DNA from: Patescibacteria group bacterium
Lineage (GTDB): Bacteria > Patescibacteriota > Patescibacteriia > Patescibacteriales > UBA12465
DNA: 64,000 nucleotides
Assembly (NCBI GenBank): GCA_041649315.1
Contig: JBAZNJ010000001.1
Span: forward strand, 133,869-197,868
Reading direction: 5' to 3'
The notes under the pieces are model-generated. The model had not been told where the DNA came from, did no database searches, and saw only the letters and a program-made list of their open reading frames with translations. Every line of letters starts with the position of its first letter. The first letter of the stretch is position 1. Positions 5,087 through 63,681 of the stretch are shown piece by piece. The translations under genes were made by a program, and so were the position numbers.

Positions 5087-5926
5087 TTATCTCTTGACTC
5101 CCGTTTGATTCTTGATTTTGACCTTAAAGCCCCATTTCATAAAATACTTCAGCCAGGAAGCGATATGCTGCCAAGCGAGATGGCTTAAAAATACCGCGAA
5201 ATACCAAGGATGATCAGCGCTCTGCCGTTTATGATCATGAATAACGACCGCATCCGGATTATAAACTACCGAAAAACCTTTAGCCCAGACCTGCCGGCAG
5301 AGATCAATATCTTCAAAATACATAAAATAACGCTCATCAAACAGGGGCTCGAATAAGTCGCCGGTCGATTGCATCAAACGTCGCCGGAACAACAAGCATG
5401 AACCCATAAGCCAATCAACCTCTCTAATCGAATTATGGTCAAAATCATTCATGGTAAAGCGATCGCGAATATTTTTAAAATAATCTCCTAAAAAGGTCCG
5501 CCGCAGAAAAGGCATCAGAAAGACCGGCCAACGGGCGCAAGAGGCCTGCAAAGACCCATCTGGATAAATTAATTTCGGACCGACAATTCCGACCGCCGGA
5601 TTATTTTTCAAATAATTTAATAGGGTATTAATCGCTCTGTCTTTTATTACCGTGTCCGGATTAAGGATTAAAATAAATTCGCCCCGGGAATTCTTGATAC
5701 CTAAATTATTCCCGCCACCCATGCCTGAATTTTTTGCGCTCTTTATCGGGCGTAAATTCGGATAACGCACCGGCAAATCCTCTAAATCATCGCCGGAATC
5801 ATTATCAACGACAATGATTTCATAATTTAAAAAACTAAGCCCGGCGCCGATAATGGACTCCAAACAATTTAACAGTTTAGCGCGGCTCTTATAGTTAACG
5901 ATGATAATTGATAATTCCATAGACAA
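5087..5926 (-). CDS. Family 2 glycosyltransferase (GT-A fold)
   Basis: 279-aa ORF. LSIIIVNYKS, VVDNDSGD, ILNPDT and FEDIDLC motifs. The first in-frame start is TTG at 5926; an ATG lies two codons in. Confidence 0.85.
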   Translation of the reverse strand: MSMELSIIIVNYKSRAKLLNCLESIIGAGLSFLNYEIIVVDNDSGDDLEDLPVRYPNLRPIKSAKNSGMGGGNNLGIKNSRGEFILILNPDTVIKDRAINTLLNYLKNNPAVGIVGPKLIYPDGSLQASCARWPVFLMPFLRRTFLGDYFKNIRDRFTMNDFDHNSIREVDWLMGSCLLFRRRLMQSTGDLFEPLFDERYFMYFEDIDLCRQVWAKGFSVVYNPDAVVIHDHKRQSADHPWYFAVFLSHLAWQHIASWLKYFMKWGFKVKIKNQTGVKR

Positions 5927-5927
5927 T

Positions 5928-6133
5928 AATCAAACAAATAAAGGCAGCTAGGCCGTTCGTCGGCAACACTCCTTCGCTTCGGTAATTTCTGTGGTAAAAT
6001 TTACCGCCTCTTCTCCGGCCACCCCCGCCAGCCGGCGGAGGCGACCGGCCGGCGATAAATTTTACTCTACGAAATTACAGGCGCTCAGGAGCATTGCCGC
6101 CCGAACGGCTTTAATTATAAATCAAACAAATAA
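5928..6133. mobile_element. MITE-like GC-rich palindromic insertion flanked by a perfect 14-bp direct repeat
   Basis: AATCAAACAAATAA occurs at 5928-5941 and 6120-6133. Between them, 5951-6110 is one long imperfect inverted repeat: left arm GCCGTTCGTCGGCAACACTCC...GGTAATTTCTGTGGTAAAATTTACCGCC, right arm GGCGATAAATTTTACTCTACGAAATTAC...GGAGCATTGCCGCCCGAACGGC. Clearly GC-richer than its flanks. Confidence 0.5.
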
Positions 6134-7189
6134 CCTTACTAAACGCCAATATATATTCATCAAGGGGTTGGCGATATACTTTAATATCGGATTGGAAATT
6201 TCCTGGAACATAATCCGTCCCTCAAAATCACGGGCAATTTCTTCAAACGGCACCGTACTAAAACTCTTTAGCCGCGCCCGCTCCTTAGCAATCATATCAT
6301 AAGTCCGGCGTTTAAAAAAATAACTATAAATCTTAATTTCTTCCTTAAACCAGCCGCCTAAAAGCGCATAAAATAACATTCCTAAATCTAAAAAAAAGAG
6401 CGGTAAAAAAATCCAAGCCAGAAAACGATAAGGGTAAAAAATAAGCAGAGTCAGATAGCGATTCCGTTCCATGTAATAAATCATCTTAGTACTGCGTTTG
6501 AATTCATATTTATGATAAACGACCGCCCGCGGCGCCAAAATAATCTTATAACCGGCTAATTTCACTTTTAAACTCAACTCTGAATCATCATGATACATGT
6601 AAAATTCTTCATTATAACCGCCAACTTGCTCAAAAACTTCTCGGCGGATAATAAAGGCACAACCGCTGGCATAACCCTTGATTTCCGGATAACCGAAAAT
6701 TTCTTTATCCGGCGCGCCATAATCGGACGTAAAACCAAAGCCGAGATAATGAATAATATTACCTAAACTATTTATTTTTGGTCGGGATTTTCCTGTCTCA
6801 TCTTTCGGATATAAAAGAATTTTCGCCTGAGCGATTCCGGCGGACGGATTATTATCTAAAGCTTTTACTAATTCTTTTAACCATTGCGACGCCAATTCCG
6901 TGTCCATATTAAGCGTCACCAAATATTCACAGCCGTCTTTAATCACTTCTTTAAAACCAAGGTTATTAGCGGCGGCATAATTTCCGTCCGGCCGCGGCAA
7001 AACCGTCGCTTCCGGATAACTATTTTTTAAATAAGTAAGCGATTCCGGCGTCGAAGCGTTATCAATAATATAAATCCGTGTTTGCTCGACCGGATAATCC
7101 TGAGCGCGCAAAGAATCGCGGCAAGGCGCTAAAAAACGCTCAGCATAATCTTTATAATTAACTAAAATTATTCCGACTTTTTTTATCAT
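6122..7189 (-). CDS. Family 2 glycosyltransferase with C-terminal TM helices
   Basis: 355-aa ORF. VGIILVNYKDY, IIDNAST, TLNMDTE and YHDDSELSLK motifs. Hydrophobic segments FLAWIFLPLFFLDLGMLFYALLGGWF. Confidence 0.85.
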   Translation of the reverse strand: MIKKVGIILVNYKDYAERFLAPCRDSLRAQDYPVEQTRIYIIDNASTPESLTYLKNSYPEATVLPRPDGNYAAANNLGFKEVIKDGCEYLVTLNMDTELASQWLKELVKALDNNPSAGIAQAKILLYPKDETGKSRPKINSLGNIIHYLGFGFTSDYGAPDKEIFGYPEIKGYASGCAFIIRREVFEQVGGYNEEFYMYHDDSELSLKVKLAGYKIILAPRAVVYHKYEFKRSTKMIYYMERNRYLTLLIFYPYRFLAWIFLPLFFLDLGMLFYALLGGWFKEEIKIYSYFFKRRTYDMIAKERARLKSFSTVPFEEIARDFEGRIMFQEISNPILKYIANPLMNIYWRLVRLFV

Positions 7190-55744: not shown

Positions 55745-57889
55745 CTAACGACTACTATAATACCAACTTAAAATATCCCTGGCAATCGGCGCGGCCATGG
55801 TACTGCCCTCCACGCCTTCTTCGACCAAAACAGTAATCACAATCTCCGGATTTTCATAAGGCGCGAAGCCGGTGAACCAGGCGTGCGGATCCTTACCGAC
55901 CGACCATTGCGCCGTTCCGGTCTTGCCGGCTACGGCCACCGGCAGAGAATACAAGGATTGGGCGCTGCCGACGGTTATGGTCTCCCGCATACCTTGGCGG
56001 ACTATTTCTAAATTAGCCGGATCAATAAAATCTTGACGAATTATTTCCGGCGCTATCTCCCTAATCACTTCATTATTATCTCCCAAAATCTTGGTAACTA
56101 AACGCGGCTGGTAAAGAATGCCGTTATTGGCTATGGCCGCGGTATAATTCGCAACCTGGAGCGGCGTAACTAAAACATCGCCCTGGCCGATCGCGAAATG
56201 ATAAGTATCGCCAATATACCAAGGATCTCCCTTTGTTTCTTCTTTCCATTCGGCAGTCGGAACAAAACCGGAACGTTCGCCGGGCAGGTCAATACCGCTC
56301 GGCTCACCTAAACCGAACAGCCTTGAATATTTTATTAAACCGCTTAATCCCAAACCGGAAAAATCGCCATAACCGCCGCCGATATAATAGAAAAAAGTAT
56401 TAACCGACTCGGCCAAGGCCTTGCGGACATTGGTCGCGCCATGGCCGCCAGCCTTCCAATCCGGAAAAAACCAAGCGCTAATCGCTAAACCGCCCGTGCT
56501 TAAAAAGCTTGTCCGCTCGGTAATTATTCCTTCCTCTAAGGCGGCGGCGGCAAAGATCGGCTTAATCGTTGATCCGGAGGGAAATTCGCCGCTGACCGGC
56601 CGGTTAAACAAGGGTAAATTTTTATCATTTAAAAATCTATCATACTCTTCTTGGCTAATGCCGCGGGCAAAAAGATTATTATCATAAGCCGGCAAAGAAA
56701 CCAAAGATAAAATCTCTCCGTTATTTGGATCCATGATTACGACCGAAGCGCGACTAAGATTATTCCTGGTTAAATATGACCGGGTGATTTCTTCCGTTTT
56801 ATTCTGTAAAGCCGCGTCAATTGATAGCTGTAAGCTATACCCGTCCTCGGCCGGCGTTTCATTGATTATCTTTTTCTGGCGGCCGAGCGCGTCAACCTCA
56901 ATATTTTTCTGGCCGGTTTTTCCTTTAAGCTCTTTTTCCCAAGACAATTCAATCCCGGTCTTGCCGATATAATCAATTGAAGAATATTCCGCTCCTAAAT
57001 TTTCCAATTCTTTTTCGCTGATTTTTCCGGTATAGCCTAAAACATGGGCCAAGCTGCTTGATTCTAAAACTTCGGCCGCGGCAATATCCGGACCGGCCGG
57101 TGCCAAATATTCCCGCCGAATCTTGCTGGATAAAAATACGCCCGGCCATTCCGGTAATTTTAAAACAACCAACATTGCTTTGGCATAATCAATATTATCG
57201 GCGACAAAAAAGGGCTGGTATGATTCTAAAGAACCGCGTTTAATCTCGCCTAAATCTTCTTTTAATTTATAGAAAGCAGCTTCATCAGAAATAATATCTA
57301 AGGACCCTAAACCGGCGTTCGAATCCGGGCGATTCGGCGCCGTTAAGTCGATCGGATTGGTTAAAATAGAAGACTCTTCATCCAAGGCGTCTCCCTTTTC
57401 TAAAACATAAATAATTTCCCGCAAAATCTGATCGCGGGCTAATTCTTCCGCCGGCAAATTGATTGGCCGCAGATATAAAACAAAATTAGCTTTATTCCGA
57501 ACCAAAGGCGATAAATTACGATCATAGATTATACCCCGCTTCGGCTCGATTGTTTCCGCCCGCAAACGATTACCCTCGGCTAAGAGGGAATAATATTCAT
57601 GCTGGCTGATCTGCAGCCAAGCGGCGCGAAAAATTAAAACCAACAAGCCGATCAAAACCGCTAAAATAAAATATTTTAAGCGGCTAAAATCAAAAGAGCG
57701 GCTGACGGTTTCTTTATGCCCGGTATCGGCCAAAAAAGATTCTTCGGTCCAATCGGTATAATAGAAAGAATCCTTAAGCCGGCCAAAACTAAAACGGCCC
57801 TCCTTAACTGAAAAAGGGTCTTCGCCGCGCTCCCGCAAATGATCTTTTGCCCGGTTTTTATGGATATTTTTGAAAAATTTATCAATCAT
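55745..57889 (-). CDS. Class B penicillin-binding protein (PBP2/FtsI-type transpeptidase)
   Basis: SxxK motif GSTIKP and KTGTAQ. N-terminal TM. The ORF track starts at a TTG at 57928; ATG at 57889 (MIDKFF) preferred. Confidence 0.9.
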   Translation of the reverse strand: MIDKFFKNIHKNRAKDHLRERGEDPFSVKEGRFSFGRLKDSFYYTDWTEESFLADTGHKETVSRSFDFSRLKYFILAVLIGLLVLIFRAAWLQISQHEYYSLLAEGNRLRAETIEPKRGIIYDRNLSPLVRNKANFVLYLRPINLPAEELARDQILREIIYVLEKGDALDEESSILTNPIDLTAPNRPDSNAGLGSLDIISDEAAFYKLKEDLGEIKRGSLESYQPFFVADNIDYAKAMLVVLKLPEWPGVFLSSKIRREYLAPAGPDIAAAEVLESSSLAHVLGYTGKISEKELENLGAEYSSIDYIGKTGIELSWEKELKGKTGQKNIEVDALGRQKKIINETPAEDGYSLQLSIDAALQNKTEEITRSYLTRNNLSRASVVIMDPNNGEILSLVSLPAYDNNLFARGISQEEYDRFLNDKNLPLFNRPVSGEFPSGSTIKPIFAAAALEEGIITERTSFLSTGGLAISAWFFPDWKAGGHGATNVRKALAESVNTFFYYIGGGYGDFSGLGLSGLIKYSRLFGLGEPSGIDLPGERSGFVPTAEWKEETKGDPWYIGDTYHFAIGQGDVLVTPLQVANYTAAIANNGILYQPRLVTKILGDNNEVIREIAPEIIRQDFIDPANLEIVRQGMRETITVGSAQSLYSLPVAVAGKTGTAQWSVGKDPHAWFTGFAPYENPEIVITVLVEEGVEGSTMAAPIARDILSWYYSSR

Positions 57890-58028
57890 AGTTAAATATA
57901 TCTTATCGCGGATTAAGGGGAAAAGCAAATTAGGGATTTAACGGAAAAACAAGCATTAACCATAAAACATTGGCTCCCTTATAGCCGAAAACTCCAATTT
58001 CAGCCCCGACAATCATTCTTTATTTTTT

Positions 58029-58057
58029 CTTTAGAAAAACTTTAACTTTTTTTCAGG
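58029..58057 (+). promoter_or_regulatory. Box A: operator-like 29-mer with an 11-bp-phased direct repeat
   Basis: CTTTAGAAAAACTTTAACTTTTTTTCAGG. Half-sites CTTTAG / CTTTAA are 11 bp apart. TATAAT at 58068-58073. Confidence 0.45.
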
Positions 58058-58107
58058 GGAAATAATTTATAATGGAGAATGAAGATAAAAAATAAAAAAA
58101 TAAAAAC

Positions 58108-58278
58108 ATGAGCTTAAGCAAAACCTGCAAAAAACATCGTTGTTTAAAAACCGGGGTCTGCCGCCATAAAACCTGGCTCGGCAACCTGGCGCTCTGCCGA
58201 ATCGGGGATAAGCAGTGTCCTTACTGCTCGCCGACTCCGTTCGGACGCTACGAACCGGAAGATATTCTCCTGCCTTAG
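58108..58278 (+). CDS. Candidate 56-codon Cys-rich basic peptide ORF
   Basis: MSLSKTCKKHRCLKTGVCRHKTWLGNLALCRIGDKQCPYCSPTPFGRYEPEDILLP, 6 Cys. GC-richer than the AT-rich flanks. A-rich leader with no SD. Below the ORF-track cutoff. Confidence 0.35.
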   Translation: MSLSKTCKKHRCLKTGVCRHKTWLGNLALCRIGDKQCPYCSPTPFGRYEPEDILLP

Positions 58279-58300
58279 CCGGAGTAATTCTTCTTGAACT

Positions 58301-58336
58301 TGATCCGCCCCTCGCTATTAAGCCGGGGGCGGGTCA
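58301..58336 (+). terminator. GC-rich hairpin between the peptide ORF and the regulator gene (terminator/attenuator candidate)
   Basis: TGATCCGCCCC (58301-58311) pairs with GGGGCGGGTCA (58326-58336): 11 bp with one G-U, 14-nt loop, followed by ATTTATATTTTA. Confidence 0.45.
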
Positions 58337-58467
58337 ATTTATATTTTATAAATCCAAGAAAAAAACAAGCCTACCTTTAGCCTAAGCCGGAAAATAAATC
58401 AGCTTAAATGTAAAAAAATTTGTCTTAGTAATAAAAATATCTTACAATAAAATAATAATACTAATTT

Positions 58468-59145
58468 ATGAAAATTCTTCTAATCGAGGACGACGAAAAT
58501 ATTGTCGATTCTCTCATTGCTCTCCTAAAAACCGCCGGCCACGCGACAGAAACAGCCTCTGACGGCGAACGCGGTTATCGCTTTGCCCGCTCCGGCGATT
58601 ATGACCTGATAATAATGGATTACAATCTGCCGAAAATGAATGGCCGAGAAATAACGAAAAAAATAAGAGAAGAAAAAATAAATACTCCGATTCTAATGCT
58701 TACTGTCCGAAACAAACTGGACGATAAAGTTGAGCTTCTTAATCTCGGCGTTGATGATTATTTAGCAAAACCTTTTGCCGCGGCCGAACTTTTGGCGCGT
58801 TTAAAGGCGCTTAGCCGGCGGCCGCGCGTCTGGCAAGGCCATATTTTAAAAAACGGCAACCTGGAACTAGATCCGGATCGTTTTTTAGTGACTAAAAACG
58901 GCCAACGGATCGTTTTATCCGGAAAAGAATTTTCTCTTCTTGAATGTTTAATGAAACACGAAGGCCGGATTCTTTCCCGCCAGGAAATAATGGAAAAGGT
59001 CTGGGATGAAAACGCCGATCCTTTCTCGAACACGATTGAAGTCCATATCATGAATTTACGAAAAAAATTAGAAGAGCGCGGCGAAACTATAATCGCCACG
59101 ATTTCCGGACGCGGCTATCGAATTGAAACGCCCGCGGAAAAATAA
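58468..59145 (+). CDS. OmpR/PhoB-family response regulator
   Basis: 225-aa ORF. Receiver MKILLIEDDENI...DLIIMDYNLPKMNG...DDYLAKPF and winged-helix C-terminus LSGKEFSLLECLM...RGYRI. Confidence 0.93.
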   Translation: MKILLIEDDENIVDSLIALLKTAGHATETASDGERGYRFARSGDYDLIIMDYNLPKMNGREITKKIREEKINTPILMLTVRNKLDDKVELLNLGVDDYLAKPFAAAELLARLKALSRRPRVWQGHILKNGNLELDPDRFLVTKNGQRIVLSGKEFSLLECLMKHEGRILSRQEIMEKVWDENADPFSNTIEVHIMNLRKKLEERGETIIATISGRGYRIETPAEK

Positions 59146-59230
59146 ATAATTTCCGATCTAGCAGCCATGCGAACCAGCCAAAATTTTTTATCTCATTACA
59201 CATTCCCGTTAAATATCCGATAAAAATTAT

Positions 59231-59259
59231 CTTTAGAAAAATCTTAACTTTTCTTCAGG
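59231..59259 (+). promoter_or_regulatory. Box B: second copy of the 29-mer (26/29 identical to box A)
   Basis: CTTTAGAAAAATCTTAACTTTTCTTCAGG, 86 nt after the regulator stop codon. Confidence 0.45.
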
Positions 59260-59350
59260 CCGCCTTTGCTAAGATAAAGGCGGCGGCAAATTCCTCGAGC
59301 GGAATTAGAAAAGTCGATGTTGCCTTACTCTAGTTCTAAATTTTTGCTCT

Positions 59351-59464
59351 ATGTTGAAAAGTAATCAAAATTCATCTCGGACGAAGAGTCACAAAGAAAA
59401 TCAGGCCTTATTGGCGATGATTTTAGCAACTGCTCTTAATCCTGGAACTCCCTGGCGCAGTTAA
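59351..59464 (+). CDS. Candidate 37-codon leader ORF
   Basis: MLKSNQNSSRTKSHKENQALLAMILATALNPGTPWRS. The stop is 6 nt before the terminator stem. No SD. May be non-coding leader RNA instead. Confidence 0.2.
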   Translation: MLKSNQNSSRTKSHKENQALLAMILATALNPGTPWRS

Positions 59465-59470
59465 AAAGAA

Positions 59471-59505
59471 AAAACACTTCTTCCTTAGAAGAAGTGTTTT
59501 GTTTT
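59471..59505 (+). terminator. Strong intrinsic terminator 10 nt upstream of the kinase start codon
   Basis: AAAACACTTCTTC-CTTA-GAAGAAGTGTTTT, a stem of about 13 bp, followed by GTTTT. Confidence 0.75.
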
Positions 59506-59514
59506 ATCATAAAT

Positions 59515-60939
59515 ATGAAAAATCTCGTTAAAAATCTAATCCGACCCTTAAGCCGAGACGAAGATCTTAGGCAACAAGAACTTATCCTTAATATTCTGCT
59601 TGGCCTGTCAATTTTTTGCTTCACGATTTTAAACCTAATCCGTTTGAAAGATGTTTTAGCCGGCGTCGGAGATATCGGAATGCCGATTACCTATACTTTG
59701 CTGATTCTGCTATTTTTTATTTTTTTGCTTTGGCTTTCTAAAAAGGGCCGGATAAAAACCGCAGCTTGGCTCCTAATTATCACTTATTCCCTACCGATGT
59801 TCTATTCTTTTATCGCCTGGGGAGGAGATCTGCCGGCCGCCTTGCTGTTAGCGGTTTTGATTATCGCTTTATGCGGCATTCTAATCGGCCAGCGTTTTGT
59901 ACTTATTGCCACGGCCGCGATTAACTTATTTTTAATCGGACTGACTTATTTGCATAACCGAGGATTAATGGCGATTGATAATTCCTGGCGCGAAGGCCGG
60001 CATGAAATCGCTGACGCTATCGCCTACGCCGTAATCTTCCTAGTTATCGCCGGTGTCTGCTGGTTATTTTGCCGCGGGTTGAATCATGCCCTAAAACGGG
60101 CGCGGCAAAGCGAAAAAGCCTTAAAACAAGAACGCGATCTTTTAGAAATCAAGATTATTGAACGGACACAGGAATTACGCCAAGCCGAAGAAAAAAAAAT
60201 AAACCAACTGCATCGCGTCGCCGAATTCGGCCGGCTCTCTTCGGGGATTTTCCATGACTTAGTTAACCCTCTAACCGCGCTCTCGCTTAATCTTGAACAA
60301 ATAAAAAATGGCGAAGATAATAAAATAGGTGATAGTAAATCTTATTTAAGCCAAGCGCTTTTGGCAACACGAAAAATGTCCGATTTAATCGTTAGCATTA
60401 AAAGCCAGATCAAAGCCGACGGGAATCAGAAAGAATTTTCCGTTAACGAAGAAATAAAACAAATAATTCAAATTTTATCTTATAAAGCGCGGCAAGCGAA
60501 TATCCACCTGGATTTCCCCGCGACGCCGGAATACTGCCTCTACGGCGATCCGGTTAAGTTCGGCCAGATTATAAGTAACTTAATAAGCAACGCGATTGAA
60601 GCCAGTAACCCCGGCCAAACCGTAAAAATCAATCTGGAAAAACAAAGCGATTATCTTAAACTTAAAGTGAGTGATCATGGCCGCGGCATTGCTCCGGACG
60701 ACCTCCCGAAAATATTTGATTCATTTTTCAGCACCAAGAAAAACGAAGGGCAAAATTTAGGCATCGGCTTGGCTTCGGTTAAAAATATCTTAGCAAAAAA
60801 TTTCCAAGGAAAAATCTCGGTTATAAGCAAACTTGGACAAGGCAGTGAATTTTCTTTATTATTTCCCTTGCAAGTCGCGAGAAATGATAAATTAAAAAAT
60901 CAAACCGAAGAACAAGCCCTAATTAAAAAATGCCTTTAG
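59515..60939 (+). CDS. Sensor histidine kinase with a multi-TM membrane sensor
   Basis: ATG at 59515 (MKNLVKNL) preferred over the GTG at 59494 inside the terminator stem. About 6 TM helices, H-box SSGIFHDLVNPLTAL, N-box LISNAIEA, G-boxes DHGRGI and GIGLASV. Confidence 0.9.
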   Translation: MKNLVKNLIRPLSRDEDLRQQELILNILLGLSIFCFTILNLIRLKDVLAGVGDIGMPITYTLLILLFFIFLLWLSKKGRIKTAAWLLIITYSLPMFYSFIAWGGDLPAALLLAVLIIALCGILIGQRFVLIATAAINLFLIGLTYLHNRGLMAIDNSWREGRHEIADAIAYAVIFLVIAGVCWLFCRGLNHALKRARQSEKALKQERDLLEIKIIERTQELRQAEEKKINQLHRVAEFGRLSSGIFHDLVNPLTALSLNLEQIKNGEDNKIGDSKSYLSQALLATRKMSDLIVSIKSQIKADGNQKEFSVNEEIKQIIQILSYKARQANIHLDFPATPEYCLYGDPVKFGQIISNLISNAIEASNPGQTVKINLEKQSDYLKLKVSDHGRGIAPDDLPKIFDSFFSTKKNEGQNLGIGLASVKNILAKNFQGKISVISKLGQGSEFSLLFPLQVARNDKLKNQTEEQALIKKCL

Positions 60940-63610: not shown

Positions 63611-63681
63611 CTGCGGGGCCTGGATTCGAACCAGGATAGCAGGATTCAAAGTCCCGAGTCCTACCGTTAGACGACCCCGCA
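63611..63681 (-). tRNA. tRNA-Gln (anticodon UUG)
   Basis: Hand-folded 71-nt cloverleaf UGCGGGG-UC-GUCU-AACGGUA-GGAC-U-CGGGA-CUUUGAA-UCCUG-CUAU-CCUGG-UUCGAAU-CCAGG-CCCCGCA-G. U1:A72 and G73. No encoded CCA. Confidence 0.9.

Follow-up and report, generated by a model that had tools for sequence, protein, structure and literature searches.

Phased direct repeats flanking a response-regulator gene of a Patescibacteria genome resemble OmpR/PhoB-family operators

Pho boxes, the sites bound by PhoB at Escherichia coli pstS and phoA, consist of two 7-bp direct repeats with an 11-bp period, which lie 10 bp upstream of the -10 element in place of a -35 element and in some cases stand in tandem and in phase. 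The phoPQ system combines a constitutive with an autoregulated promoter. The PhoP box is a direct repeat of a hexamer with a separation of 5 nt; in architecture I promoters, including that of phoP, it has direct orientation, lies about 12 nt upstream of the -10 element, overlaps the -35 element and serves class II activation, and the same paper cites class II contact with sigma for PhoB (PMC3335776). Here we describe a comparable arrangement in a 64,000-nt stretch of DNA (“the window”; contig JBAZNJ010000001.1 of assembly GCA_041649315.1, positions 133,869 to 197,868 of the forward strand) from a Patescibacteria group bacterium, where two similar sequence boxes, A and B, flank the gene of an OmpR/PhoB-family response regulator (RR), which is followed by a sensor histidine kinase (HK) gene. 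To our knowledge, gene regulation is almost unknown in bacteria of the candidate phyla radiation, which are uncultured and possess very few regulators. The boxes are most likely an ordinary kind of element, namely a direct-repeat operator of the OmpR/PhoB family at autoregulated class II promoters. We consider it likely that the regulator encoded between them binds the boxes in its phosphorylated form and would thereby activate, rather than repress, two promoters without a -35 element. The small-gene and leader-RNA module downstream of the boxes is conserved, unannotated and uncharacterised.

Box A (CTTTAGAAAAACTTTAACTTTTTTTCAGG, 58029-58057) and box B (CTTTAGAAAAATCTTAACTTTTCTTCAGG, 59231-59259) are identical at 26 of 29 positions. 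Both contain CTTTAG and (C/T)(T/C)TTAA 11 bp apart, with TTAACT at 58042-58047 in A and 59244-59249 in B, and 20 nt further on the hexamers TATAAT (58068-58073) and TAAGAT (59270-59275), respectively. These features had been listed in an original prediction made by reading the sequence alone, and an exact sequence check reproduced all of them. The absence of a third copy was confirmed as well: a search of both strands of the window with up to 3 mismatches found A and B alone, and 100 dinucleotide-preserving shuffles of the window yielded zero copies. A repeat finder lengthened the similarity by 4 nt to the left, giving a 33-nt repeat. The original prediction had also described two half-sites per box, of which the 11-bp phasing stood and the number did not. 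A third phased repeat lies within each box at box positions 23-28 (TTTCAG in A, CTTCAG in B), and A alone has an extra upstream repeat, CTTTATTTTTT, at 58018-58028. Site A thus has four repeats, with the box as first delimited covering repeats 2-4, and site B has three.

Related loci were collected by two routes. Homologs of the kinase led to nine syntenic loci (52-87% identical), and a metagenome scan with a pattern for the small peptide encoded in the RR-HK spacer added 31 loci, for a non-redundant total of 31. The scanned sequence comprised 64 kb from this genome and, for each related locus, about 10-13 kb. Alignment of the orthologous intergenic regions, which the original prediction had proposed as a check, showed the boxes in ungapped register, at first across nine genomes, with a repeat unit nTTTAnnnnnn and TTTA cores exactly 11 bp apart in 18 RR-side sites and 23 sites in the RR-HK spacer. 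The RR-side consensus spans four units, nTTTATtTTTT nTTTAgAAAAA nTTTAnnTttT nTTtATc, and its TTTA cores are almost invariant (information content ~2 bits, 18 loci). Spacer sites usually lie 14-27 nt 3' of the RR stop codon; 21 non-redundant loci gave clear scores for them and two (L030 and L022) weak ones. The register-aligned sites were chosen by score, and their register relative to the -10 element and the regulator gene is independent of that choice.

This register proved almost fixed. Box position 27 is the end of the last TTTA core and position 40 the start of the -10 element. This 12-nt interval holds for the window sites and for 40 of the 41 sites listed, the exception being the RR-HK site of L047, which is one base off. 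Fifteen of the 23 spacer sites also carry TG two bases 5' of the -10 hexamer. The -10 elements of the boxes were assigned by consensus and conservation, and the transcription starts that go with them are predicted ones. No -35-like hexamer was found 16-18 nt upstream of either box -10, and for this reason the promoter scan called neither site, TTAACT being 20 nt away. The implicit reading of TTAACT as a -35 element was therefore abandoned: at 20 nt it lies too far from the -10 hexamer in both boxes, compared with the 16-18 nt needed, and the repeats occupy the place of the -35 element. In both arrays, direct repeats phased at 11 bp occupy the -35 position and stop 12 nt short of the -10 element. 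This is the geometry of OmpR/PhoB-type tandem sites, as originally proposed, and matches the architecture I promoters of PhoP (PMC3335776). A hairpin across the box B -10 element (CCGCCTTT...AAAGGCGG) was considered as a separate element and dropped, as it is not conserved in relatives.

Common to these sites and the PhoP box (phoP, mgtA, slyB and pmrD of Salmonella and E. coli) are the 11-bp period, the direct orientation, the TTTA core, the distance to the -10 element, the overlap with or replacement of the -35 element and a site at the regulator's own operon. Some relatives even read GTTTAGAAAAAGTTTAT, which is near the PhoP-box sequence (T/G)GTTTA-N5-(T/G)GTTTA, and the present locus is also like phoPQ in pairing an autoregulated with a constitutive promoter. 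The differences are equally clear. Three or four phased repeats are present here, whereas the PhoP box has two; a G precedes TTTA in only a minority of the sites; the regulator is no PhoP ortholog, its host belongs to the uncultured Patescibacteria, and the promoters would drive terminator-closed small open reading frames (ORFs). The Pho box half-site CTGTCAT, in turn, is unrelated to the nTTTAn found here. The regulator scored below every NCBIfam equivalog cut-off (135 bits vs 336 for PhoP, 169 bits vs 296 for PhoB) and its nearest solved relatives are OmpR-family proteins; it is best classed as a generic member of the OmpR/PhoB family and as the ortholog of neither PhoP nor PhoB. The site is accordingly predicted to work like a PhoP box without belonging to the PhoP or PhoB regulons.

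The specificity of the motif was examined with a weight matrix of 33 columns, built from 13 sites of seven other genomes, with the window and a close relative left out. Among the ~128,000 window positions scanned, box A ranked first (26.9 bits) and box B second (22.9 bits), with the next best position at 14.7 bits. Leave-one-out scans, and scans of 21 loci outside the training set, again placed the top matches at both box positions, and the flanks of the related loci (~350 kb in total) held no consistent third site. These results are difficult to combine with the idea that the boxes are a generic AT-rich promoter feature of Patescibacteria, in which phased A/T tracts, or curved DNA similar to UP elements, would raise promoter strength without a specific regulator. 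It is true that the A- and T-tracts recur with a period near the helical repeat, that the reverse strand of the sites scores moderately (13-19 bits), as expected of A/T-tract DNA, and that similar 22-mers occur in several other candidate-phyla genomes. However, no other promoter in the 64 kb exceeded the 14.7 bits given above, the TTTA cores match the -10 element in invariance and their neighbouring positions vary, the two boxes of a genome co-vary at the third repeat, and the nearby promoter of the regulator gene has an ordinary -35 element and no array. We regard the generic reading as quite improbable. Because the matrix scans find no consistent extra site, the motif is not a scattered AT-rich promoter element within the examined sequence, and the outcome that the original prediction had itself named as fatal, an element scattered without link to this locus, was not observed.

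The co-variation between the boxes was quantified over the 33 positions. A/B pairs of one genome share 23.1/33 positions, compared with 21.2/33 between genomes (permutation p ~1e-4). The effect is visible in the third repeat (p ~8e-4) and not in the spacer (p = 0.38); for example, TTCAGG is found in both window boxes and TTTATC in both boxes of most relatives. As the third repeat co-varies and the spacer does not, one shared reader fits better than copying of the whole tract. Another reading is that the boxes are relics of duplication or recombination without any sequence-specific function today, being either repeats on both sides of a 1.2-kb regulator cassette that was inserted or a promoter that was copied. 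Direct repeats do flank a single gene at a distance of 1.2 kb, and an identity of 26/29 is above what degenerate sites need, but the flanking sequence is unrelated on both sides. Moreover, the synteny is the same in all loci, the distance from box to -10 element is fixed, and arrangement and register are kept where the kinases are only 50-60% identical and the surrounding non-coding DNA has diverged. Such an origin without present function is extremely improbable, and the mobile-element or duplication reading was ruled out on the conserved synteny and register.

The whole-genome pattern search proposed with the original prediction was carried out with the exact 22-nt core CTTTAGAAAAANNTTAACTTTT on 185,579 species-representative genomes, among which the window's own species is apparently not included. 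It returned 14 single matches, one of them upstream of a homologous regulator, and left the regulon undefined. In that case (L013), a three-repeat site of 36.5 bits with TAAGCT at the +40 offset precedes a lone OmpR-type regulator by 123 nt. This regulator is 46% identical, and its surroundings are otherwise unrelated. This match bears on whether the boxes could be operators of another DNA-binding protein, be it another OmpR-family member or an unrelated factor encoded elsewhere. L008 and L014, whose strong sites have no homolog of the regulator within 8 kb, speak for such a factor, as does the fact that only part of the genome is visible. On the other hand, the sites flank the regulator gene in ~20 genomes of Falkowbacteria-like Patescibacteria, and the L013 site in front of a lone homologous regulator in an unrelated context is unlikely to have arisen by chance among 14 genome matches. 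Autoregulation is the rule for such systems, and the geometry is one used by the OmpR/PhoB family (PMC3335776). Another factor as the reader of the boxes thus seems improbable.

Two further sites are of interest in their own right. A full four-repeat box of 35.8 bits lies at 5544-5600 (+) in L008, with TAAAAT at the standard offset, 5' of an unrelated 266-aa ORF (5626-6426) and just after a LexA-like gene; the 266-aa gene is a candidate for membership in the regulon of the homologous regulator in that Patescibacteria genome. On a Saccharibacteria-labelled contig (L006, 4778-4860, -), CTTTAGAAAAA is repeated at 22-bp spacing in a longer phased array, which suggests that related repeat operators occur in other candidate-phyla lineages.

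Several observations weigh against the assignment of the boxes to the regulator encoded between them. A subclade of six loci (L023, L025, L033, L035, L041 and L043) has no site B and at most two RR-side repeats, visible in L023 and L035. Strong copies of the motif occur in other Patescibacteria (L008 and L014) with no regulator within 8 kb, and, given the extent of sequence scanned, a wider regulon or use of the motif by another factor is possible. A simple set of dimers does not account for the three repeats of site B, and intrinsic curvature of A/T tracts phased near the helical repeat could contribute to the conservation. Finally, the case is built wholly by comparative sequence analysis. 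We nevertheless favour the assignment to the encoded regulator, the central proposal of the original prediction, which is supported as far as such analysis reaches.

Based on these results, we propose the following circuit. The regulator would bind the repeats head-to-tail as dimers, and the promoter-proximal repeat pair, which overlaps the -35 position and ends 12 nt before the -10 element, suggests that the bound regulator would recruit RNA polymerase by class II activation. Basal expression of the regulator gene would be provided by its conventional promoter. The activated promoters would give rise to two short, terminator-closed transcripts, one from box A encoding a Cys-rich 56-aa protein, and one from box B carrying a 5' hairpin and encoding a 37-aa peptide with the C-terminal motif NPGTPWR. 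Each box is thus predicted to act directly on a small ORF rather than on the genes of the regulator or the kinase. The kinase gene and the following gene of a 283-aa protein are probably expressed by readthrough, because they lie behind the second terminator and no recognisable promoter was found between this terminator and the kinase start. In this way the locus would form an autoregulated two-component system, with two small proteins as its first outputs.

Gene calls on an identical contig confirm the order of the locus after the PBP2 gene: box A, Cys-rich ORF, hairpin, regulator, box B, leader (~75 nt), 37-aa ORF, terminator, kinase and 283-aa ORF. The coordinates are shown in Table 1.

Table 1. 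Features of the two-component locus, with positions in the window.
Feature	Position	Strand	Basis or remark
PBP2 gene	55745-57928	-	First gene of the listed locus order, before box A
Site A, four 11-bp repeats CTTTATTTTTT / CTTTAGAAAAA / CTTTAACTTTT / TTTCAGGGGAA	58018..58061	+	Register conserved in 18 loci
-10 hexamer TATAAT of the box A promoter	58068..58073	+	TAnnnT at +40 to +45 from box start in 18/18 RR-side sites
Cys/His/Lys-rich ORF, 56 aa, C-terminus GRYEPEDILLP	58108..58278	+	Called gene; first gene 3' of box A
Terminator-like hairpin after the Cys-rich ORF	58297..58340	+	Inverted repeat, -31 kcal/mol
Conventional sigma-70-type promoter of the regulator gene, TTGTCT-17-TACAAT	58420..58448	+	Promoter scan, conservation
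OmpR/PhoB-family response regulator, 225 aa	58468..59145	+	Pfam: Response_reg 2.3e-28, Trans_reg_C (winged-helix) 5e-27
Site B, three 11-bp repeats CTTTAGAAAAA / TCTTAACTTTT / CTTCAGGCCGC	59231..59263	+	In register in 23 listed loci
Extended -10 TGcTAAGAT of the box B promoter	59267..59275	+	TAnnnT at box-A-like offset in 22/23 spacer sites
Leader RNA hairpin, 59285-59291 pairing with 59318-59324, 5 Watson-Crick pairs here	59285..59324	+	Covariation
37-aa ORF MLKSNQNSSRTKSHKENQALLAMILATALNPGTPWRS, family ending NPG[T/I]PWR + 0-1 residue	59351..59464	+	Conservation, codon periodicity
Intrinsic terminator, immediately 3' of the peptide ORF and 10 nt before the kinase start	59466..59505	+	Inverted repeat, terminator scan
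Sensor histidine kinase, 474 aa, multi-pass membrane N-terminus	59515..60939	+	Gene calls, Pfam
283-aa protein, overlaps the kinase stop codon	60930..61781	+	Found in every locus whose contig extends to the 283-aa gene

Orthologs of the Cys-rich protein (54-56 aa) were found in 13 of the 18 loci having an RR-side site. C12, C18, C30 and C37 are invariant in this family, C7, H10 and H20 nearly so, and the C-terminus reads GRYEPEDhhhP. The pattern C-x2-H-x-C-x5-C-x-H, together with a Lys/Arg-rich N-terminal half, makes the protein look like a small metal-binding knuckle. It had no match in Pfam, NCBIfam or the PDB, a profile search against PDB sequences gave nothing credible, and a homolog search retrieved only an identical protein in a Patescibacteria metagenome-assembled genome. 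A strong hairpin follows directly 3' of the ORF in 12 of the 13 loci, the exception being L038 (-4.0 kcal/mol). Roughly half of all related loci have no such ORF; there the box promoter points straight at the regulator gene, and the four-repeat promoter lies ~100-160 nt upstream of it. In the 13 loci with the Cys-rich ORF, the regulator's own promoter is conserved as TTGTnT-17-TA(A/C)AAT, 6-26 nt before the RR start codon; of the five loci lacking the ORF, four have a matching sequence ahead of the RR start, and in L020 none is evident. This promoter has a -35 element, in contrast to the box promoters.

The leader downstream of box B contains a conserved RNA helix, GGCAAUA/UAUUGCC, which encloses AAAGGUCGA, almost invariant in sequence, and in some leaders also an inserted hairpin of up to 56 nt. 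In the core alignment, 97.4% of the cells were paired, and compensatory changes were found for five of the seven pairs. None of 500 shuffles reached the observed score, slid controls gave 33-72%, and RNAalifold recovered the helix de novo on full-length leaders. Since G-U pairs are frequent, the helix is a feature of the + strand RNA. The window's own leader shows the conserved unpaired AAAAGUCGA at 59309-59317 and a small inserted stem; its helix is weak (5 bp) and is not selected by a single-sequence fold. A covariance model of the leader matched only these leaders. Rfam gave no gathering-score match to the leader in the window scan and none on the leader at E <= 5, while an E-value scan of 57900-59600 returned only weak matches, which fell on the terminator. 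The sole gathering-score match in the window was a tRNA gene at 63611-63681 (-). The subclade without site B also has no leader, and its peptide ORF directly follows the regulator gene. In the spacer sites of L024 (TCGACC), L019 and L054, the sequence just 5' of the box B -10 element is complementary to the leader-loop GGUCGA (loop at 59309-59317 in the window). This stretch would be transcribed only by readthrough from the regulator gene, and the pattern is inconsistent across loci.

The peptide ORF (25-37 aa) was present in all nine loci reached through kinase homology, and in the 31 metagenome matches to the back-translated C-terminus it is flanked by orthologous RR and HK genes wherever the contig extends far enough. 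Its entropies at codon positions 1/2/3 are 0.50/0.22/1.31 bits, and 0.06/0.00/1.10 bits within LNPGTPWR, a pattern showing that the ORF is translated and that strong purifying selection acts on it. In the metagenome loci LNPGTPWR is invariant because the search pattern required it, and the unbiased evidence comes from the nine kinase-derived loci and from a profile search. The latter returned 46 database members, nearly all of 35-37 aa, all unnamed or “hypothetical” and ending in NPG[T/I]PWR with 0-1 further residue. Conservation is concentrated in the last 10-18 residues, the N-terminus is variable, and the peptide has a hydrophobic stretch of 11-13 residues. Neither Pfam nor NCBIfam had a match, the family has no name, and a literature search for the string NPGTPW found no paper. 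A terminator hairpin begins 0-9 nt past the peptide stop codon in 29 of the 31 loci (median 3 nt, median -18.6 kcal/mol), and the kinase start lies 45-75 nt past this stop in the nine loci measured. The terminator stems (59471-59500 in the window) share [AG]C[AG]CTTCTT ... AAGAAG[TC]G across the 31 loci although other non-coding DNA has diverged, which is unusual, as a stem needs only pairing.

Short peptide genes beside kinase and regulator genes, preceded by regulator-bound direct repeats, are familiar from peptide-pheromone systems such as comCDE, agrBDCA and plantaricin/blp. These systems use LytTR/ComE-type regulators, double-glycine leaders or AgrB processing, a dedicated exporter and mature peptides that are diversified between strains. 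The present locus differs in its OmpR-type regulator and in a peptide C-terminus that is invariant across genomes, and gene calling in the flanks (~6 kb) of the fetched loci revealed no exporter gene. A quorum-sensing pheromone was ruled out on this invariant C-terminus, the lack of a double-glycine leader and the lack of an exporter among the called neighbouring genes. By analogy, the likeliest role of the peptide would be that of a trans-acting feedback or connector protein on the kinase or regulator, in the way that MgrB, a small protein encoded in the PhoP regulon, feeds back on the kinase PhoQ (PMC8404706). Like connectors of the MgrB-PhoQ type (SafA, MzrA and PmrD), the peptide is shorter than 50 aa and would be produced from a promoter controlled by the regulator of its own system. 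In contrast to these connectors, its gene lies within the operon, between those of the regulator and the kinase, and the peptide has no sequence similarity to them: no Pfam or NCBIfam homology to an MgrB-like modulator was detected, and its hydrophobic run of 11-13 residues does not make a full transmembrane helix.

A different role for the peptide follows from its position. The NPGTPWR ORF could be a cis-acting leader peptide, with ribosome pausing or slow termination at its C-terminus covering the 5' arm of the terminator and thereby permitting readthrough into the kinase gene. As in an attenuator, a short ORF stands immediately 5' of a terminator that precedes a gene, and 29 of 31 loci keep the order ORF, terminator, kinase, those of the subclade lacking box B among them. 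The C-terminally weighted conservation with a variable N-terminus, a length close to what the ribosomal exit tunnel can hold, a hydrophobic stretch shorter than a normal membrane helix requires and the lack of a recognisable promoter between terminator and kinase start all agree with such a mechanism. However, the third codon positions vary freely (1.1-1.3 bits in conserved codons), so that the ORF contains no conserved antiterminator pairing. No run of a single regulatory codon was seen in it; ribosome occlusion is compatible with both of these null results. The terminators after the Cys-rich ORF are equally close to the stop codon, which indicates that proximity is not special in compact genomes. 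The peptide shows no likeness to the arrest peptides known to us, and its constant length and invariant 8-residue motif would suit a folded or interacting small protein equally well. We hold a cis-acting leader peptide to be unlikely. The more inclusive proposal is that the RR-HK spacer is an undescribed cassette of Falkowbacteria-like genomes, comprising a regulator-dependent promoter, a AAAGGUCGA-loop hairpin and an NPGTPWR leader peptide whose translation or arrest gates the terminator and so sets the expression of the kinase and the 283-aa protein. This is unlikely; if true, the spacer cassette would be a translation-coupled attenuator inside a two-component operon, combined with transcriptional autoregulation.

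The kinase has more than 500 homologs at E <= 1e-20, with identities of 50-87% among the best 120, and those that are named are labelled “Candidatus Falkowbacteria” or “Patescibacteria group”. The 283-aa gene is translationally coupled to the kinase gene. Its product had no sequence match in Pfam, NCBIfam or the PDB, a profile search against PDB sequences gave nothing credible, a lenient Pfam scan across all orthologs revealed no recurrent family, and a single-sequence AlphaFold2 model was unusable (predicted local distance difference test, pLDDT, 42). The orthologs (L016-L024) share two invariant Asp-rich motifs, NIYDDFxD and QLADDAxDW, ~125 residues apart, an arrangement that recalls the DDxxD pair of class I isoprenoid synthases. 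A Ca/Mg-type P-type ATPase gene (Cation_ATPase_N/C, E1-E2_ATPase) is located directly 3' of the 283-aa gene on the same strand in two loci (L018, 8264-10783; L020, 8292-10811), which hints at a link of the system to cation homeostasis; no box was found ahead of the ATPase gene in these loci.

The locus represents a testable operator-regulator pair, and the consensus (nTTTAnnnnnn) x3-4 with a -10 element at a fixed distance can be used for regulon definition in complete genomes. Three conserved elements that are so far unannotated, namely the NPGTPWR peptide family, the Cys-rich 54-56-aa protein and the structured leader RNA, are good candidates for feedback or connector functions. The occurrence of a class II architecture of the PhoP/PhoB style, together with the pairing of autoregulated and constitutive promoters, in such a distant lineage points to an ancestral promoter logic.

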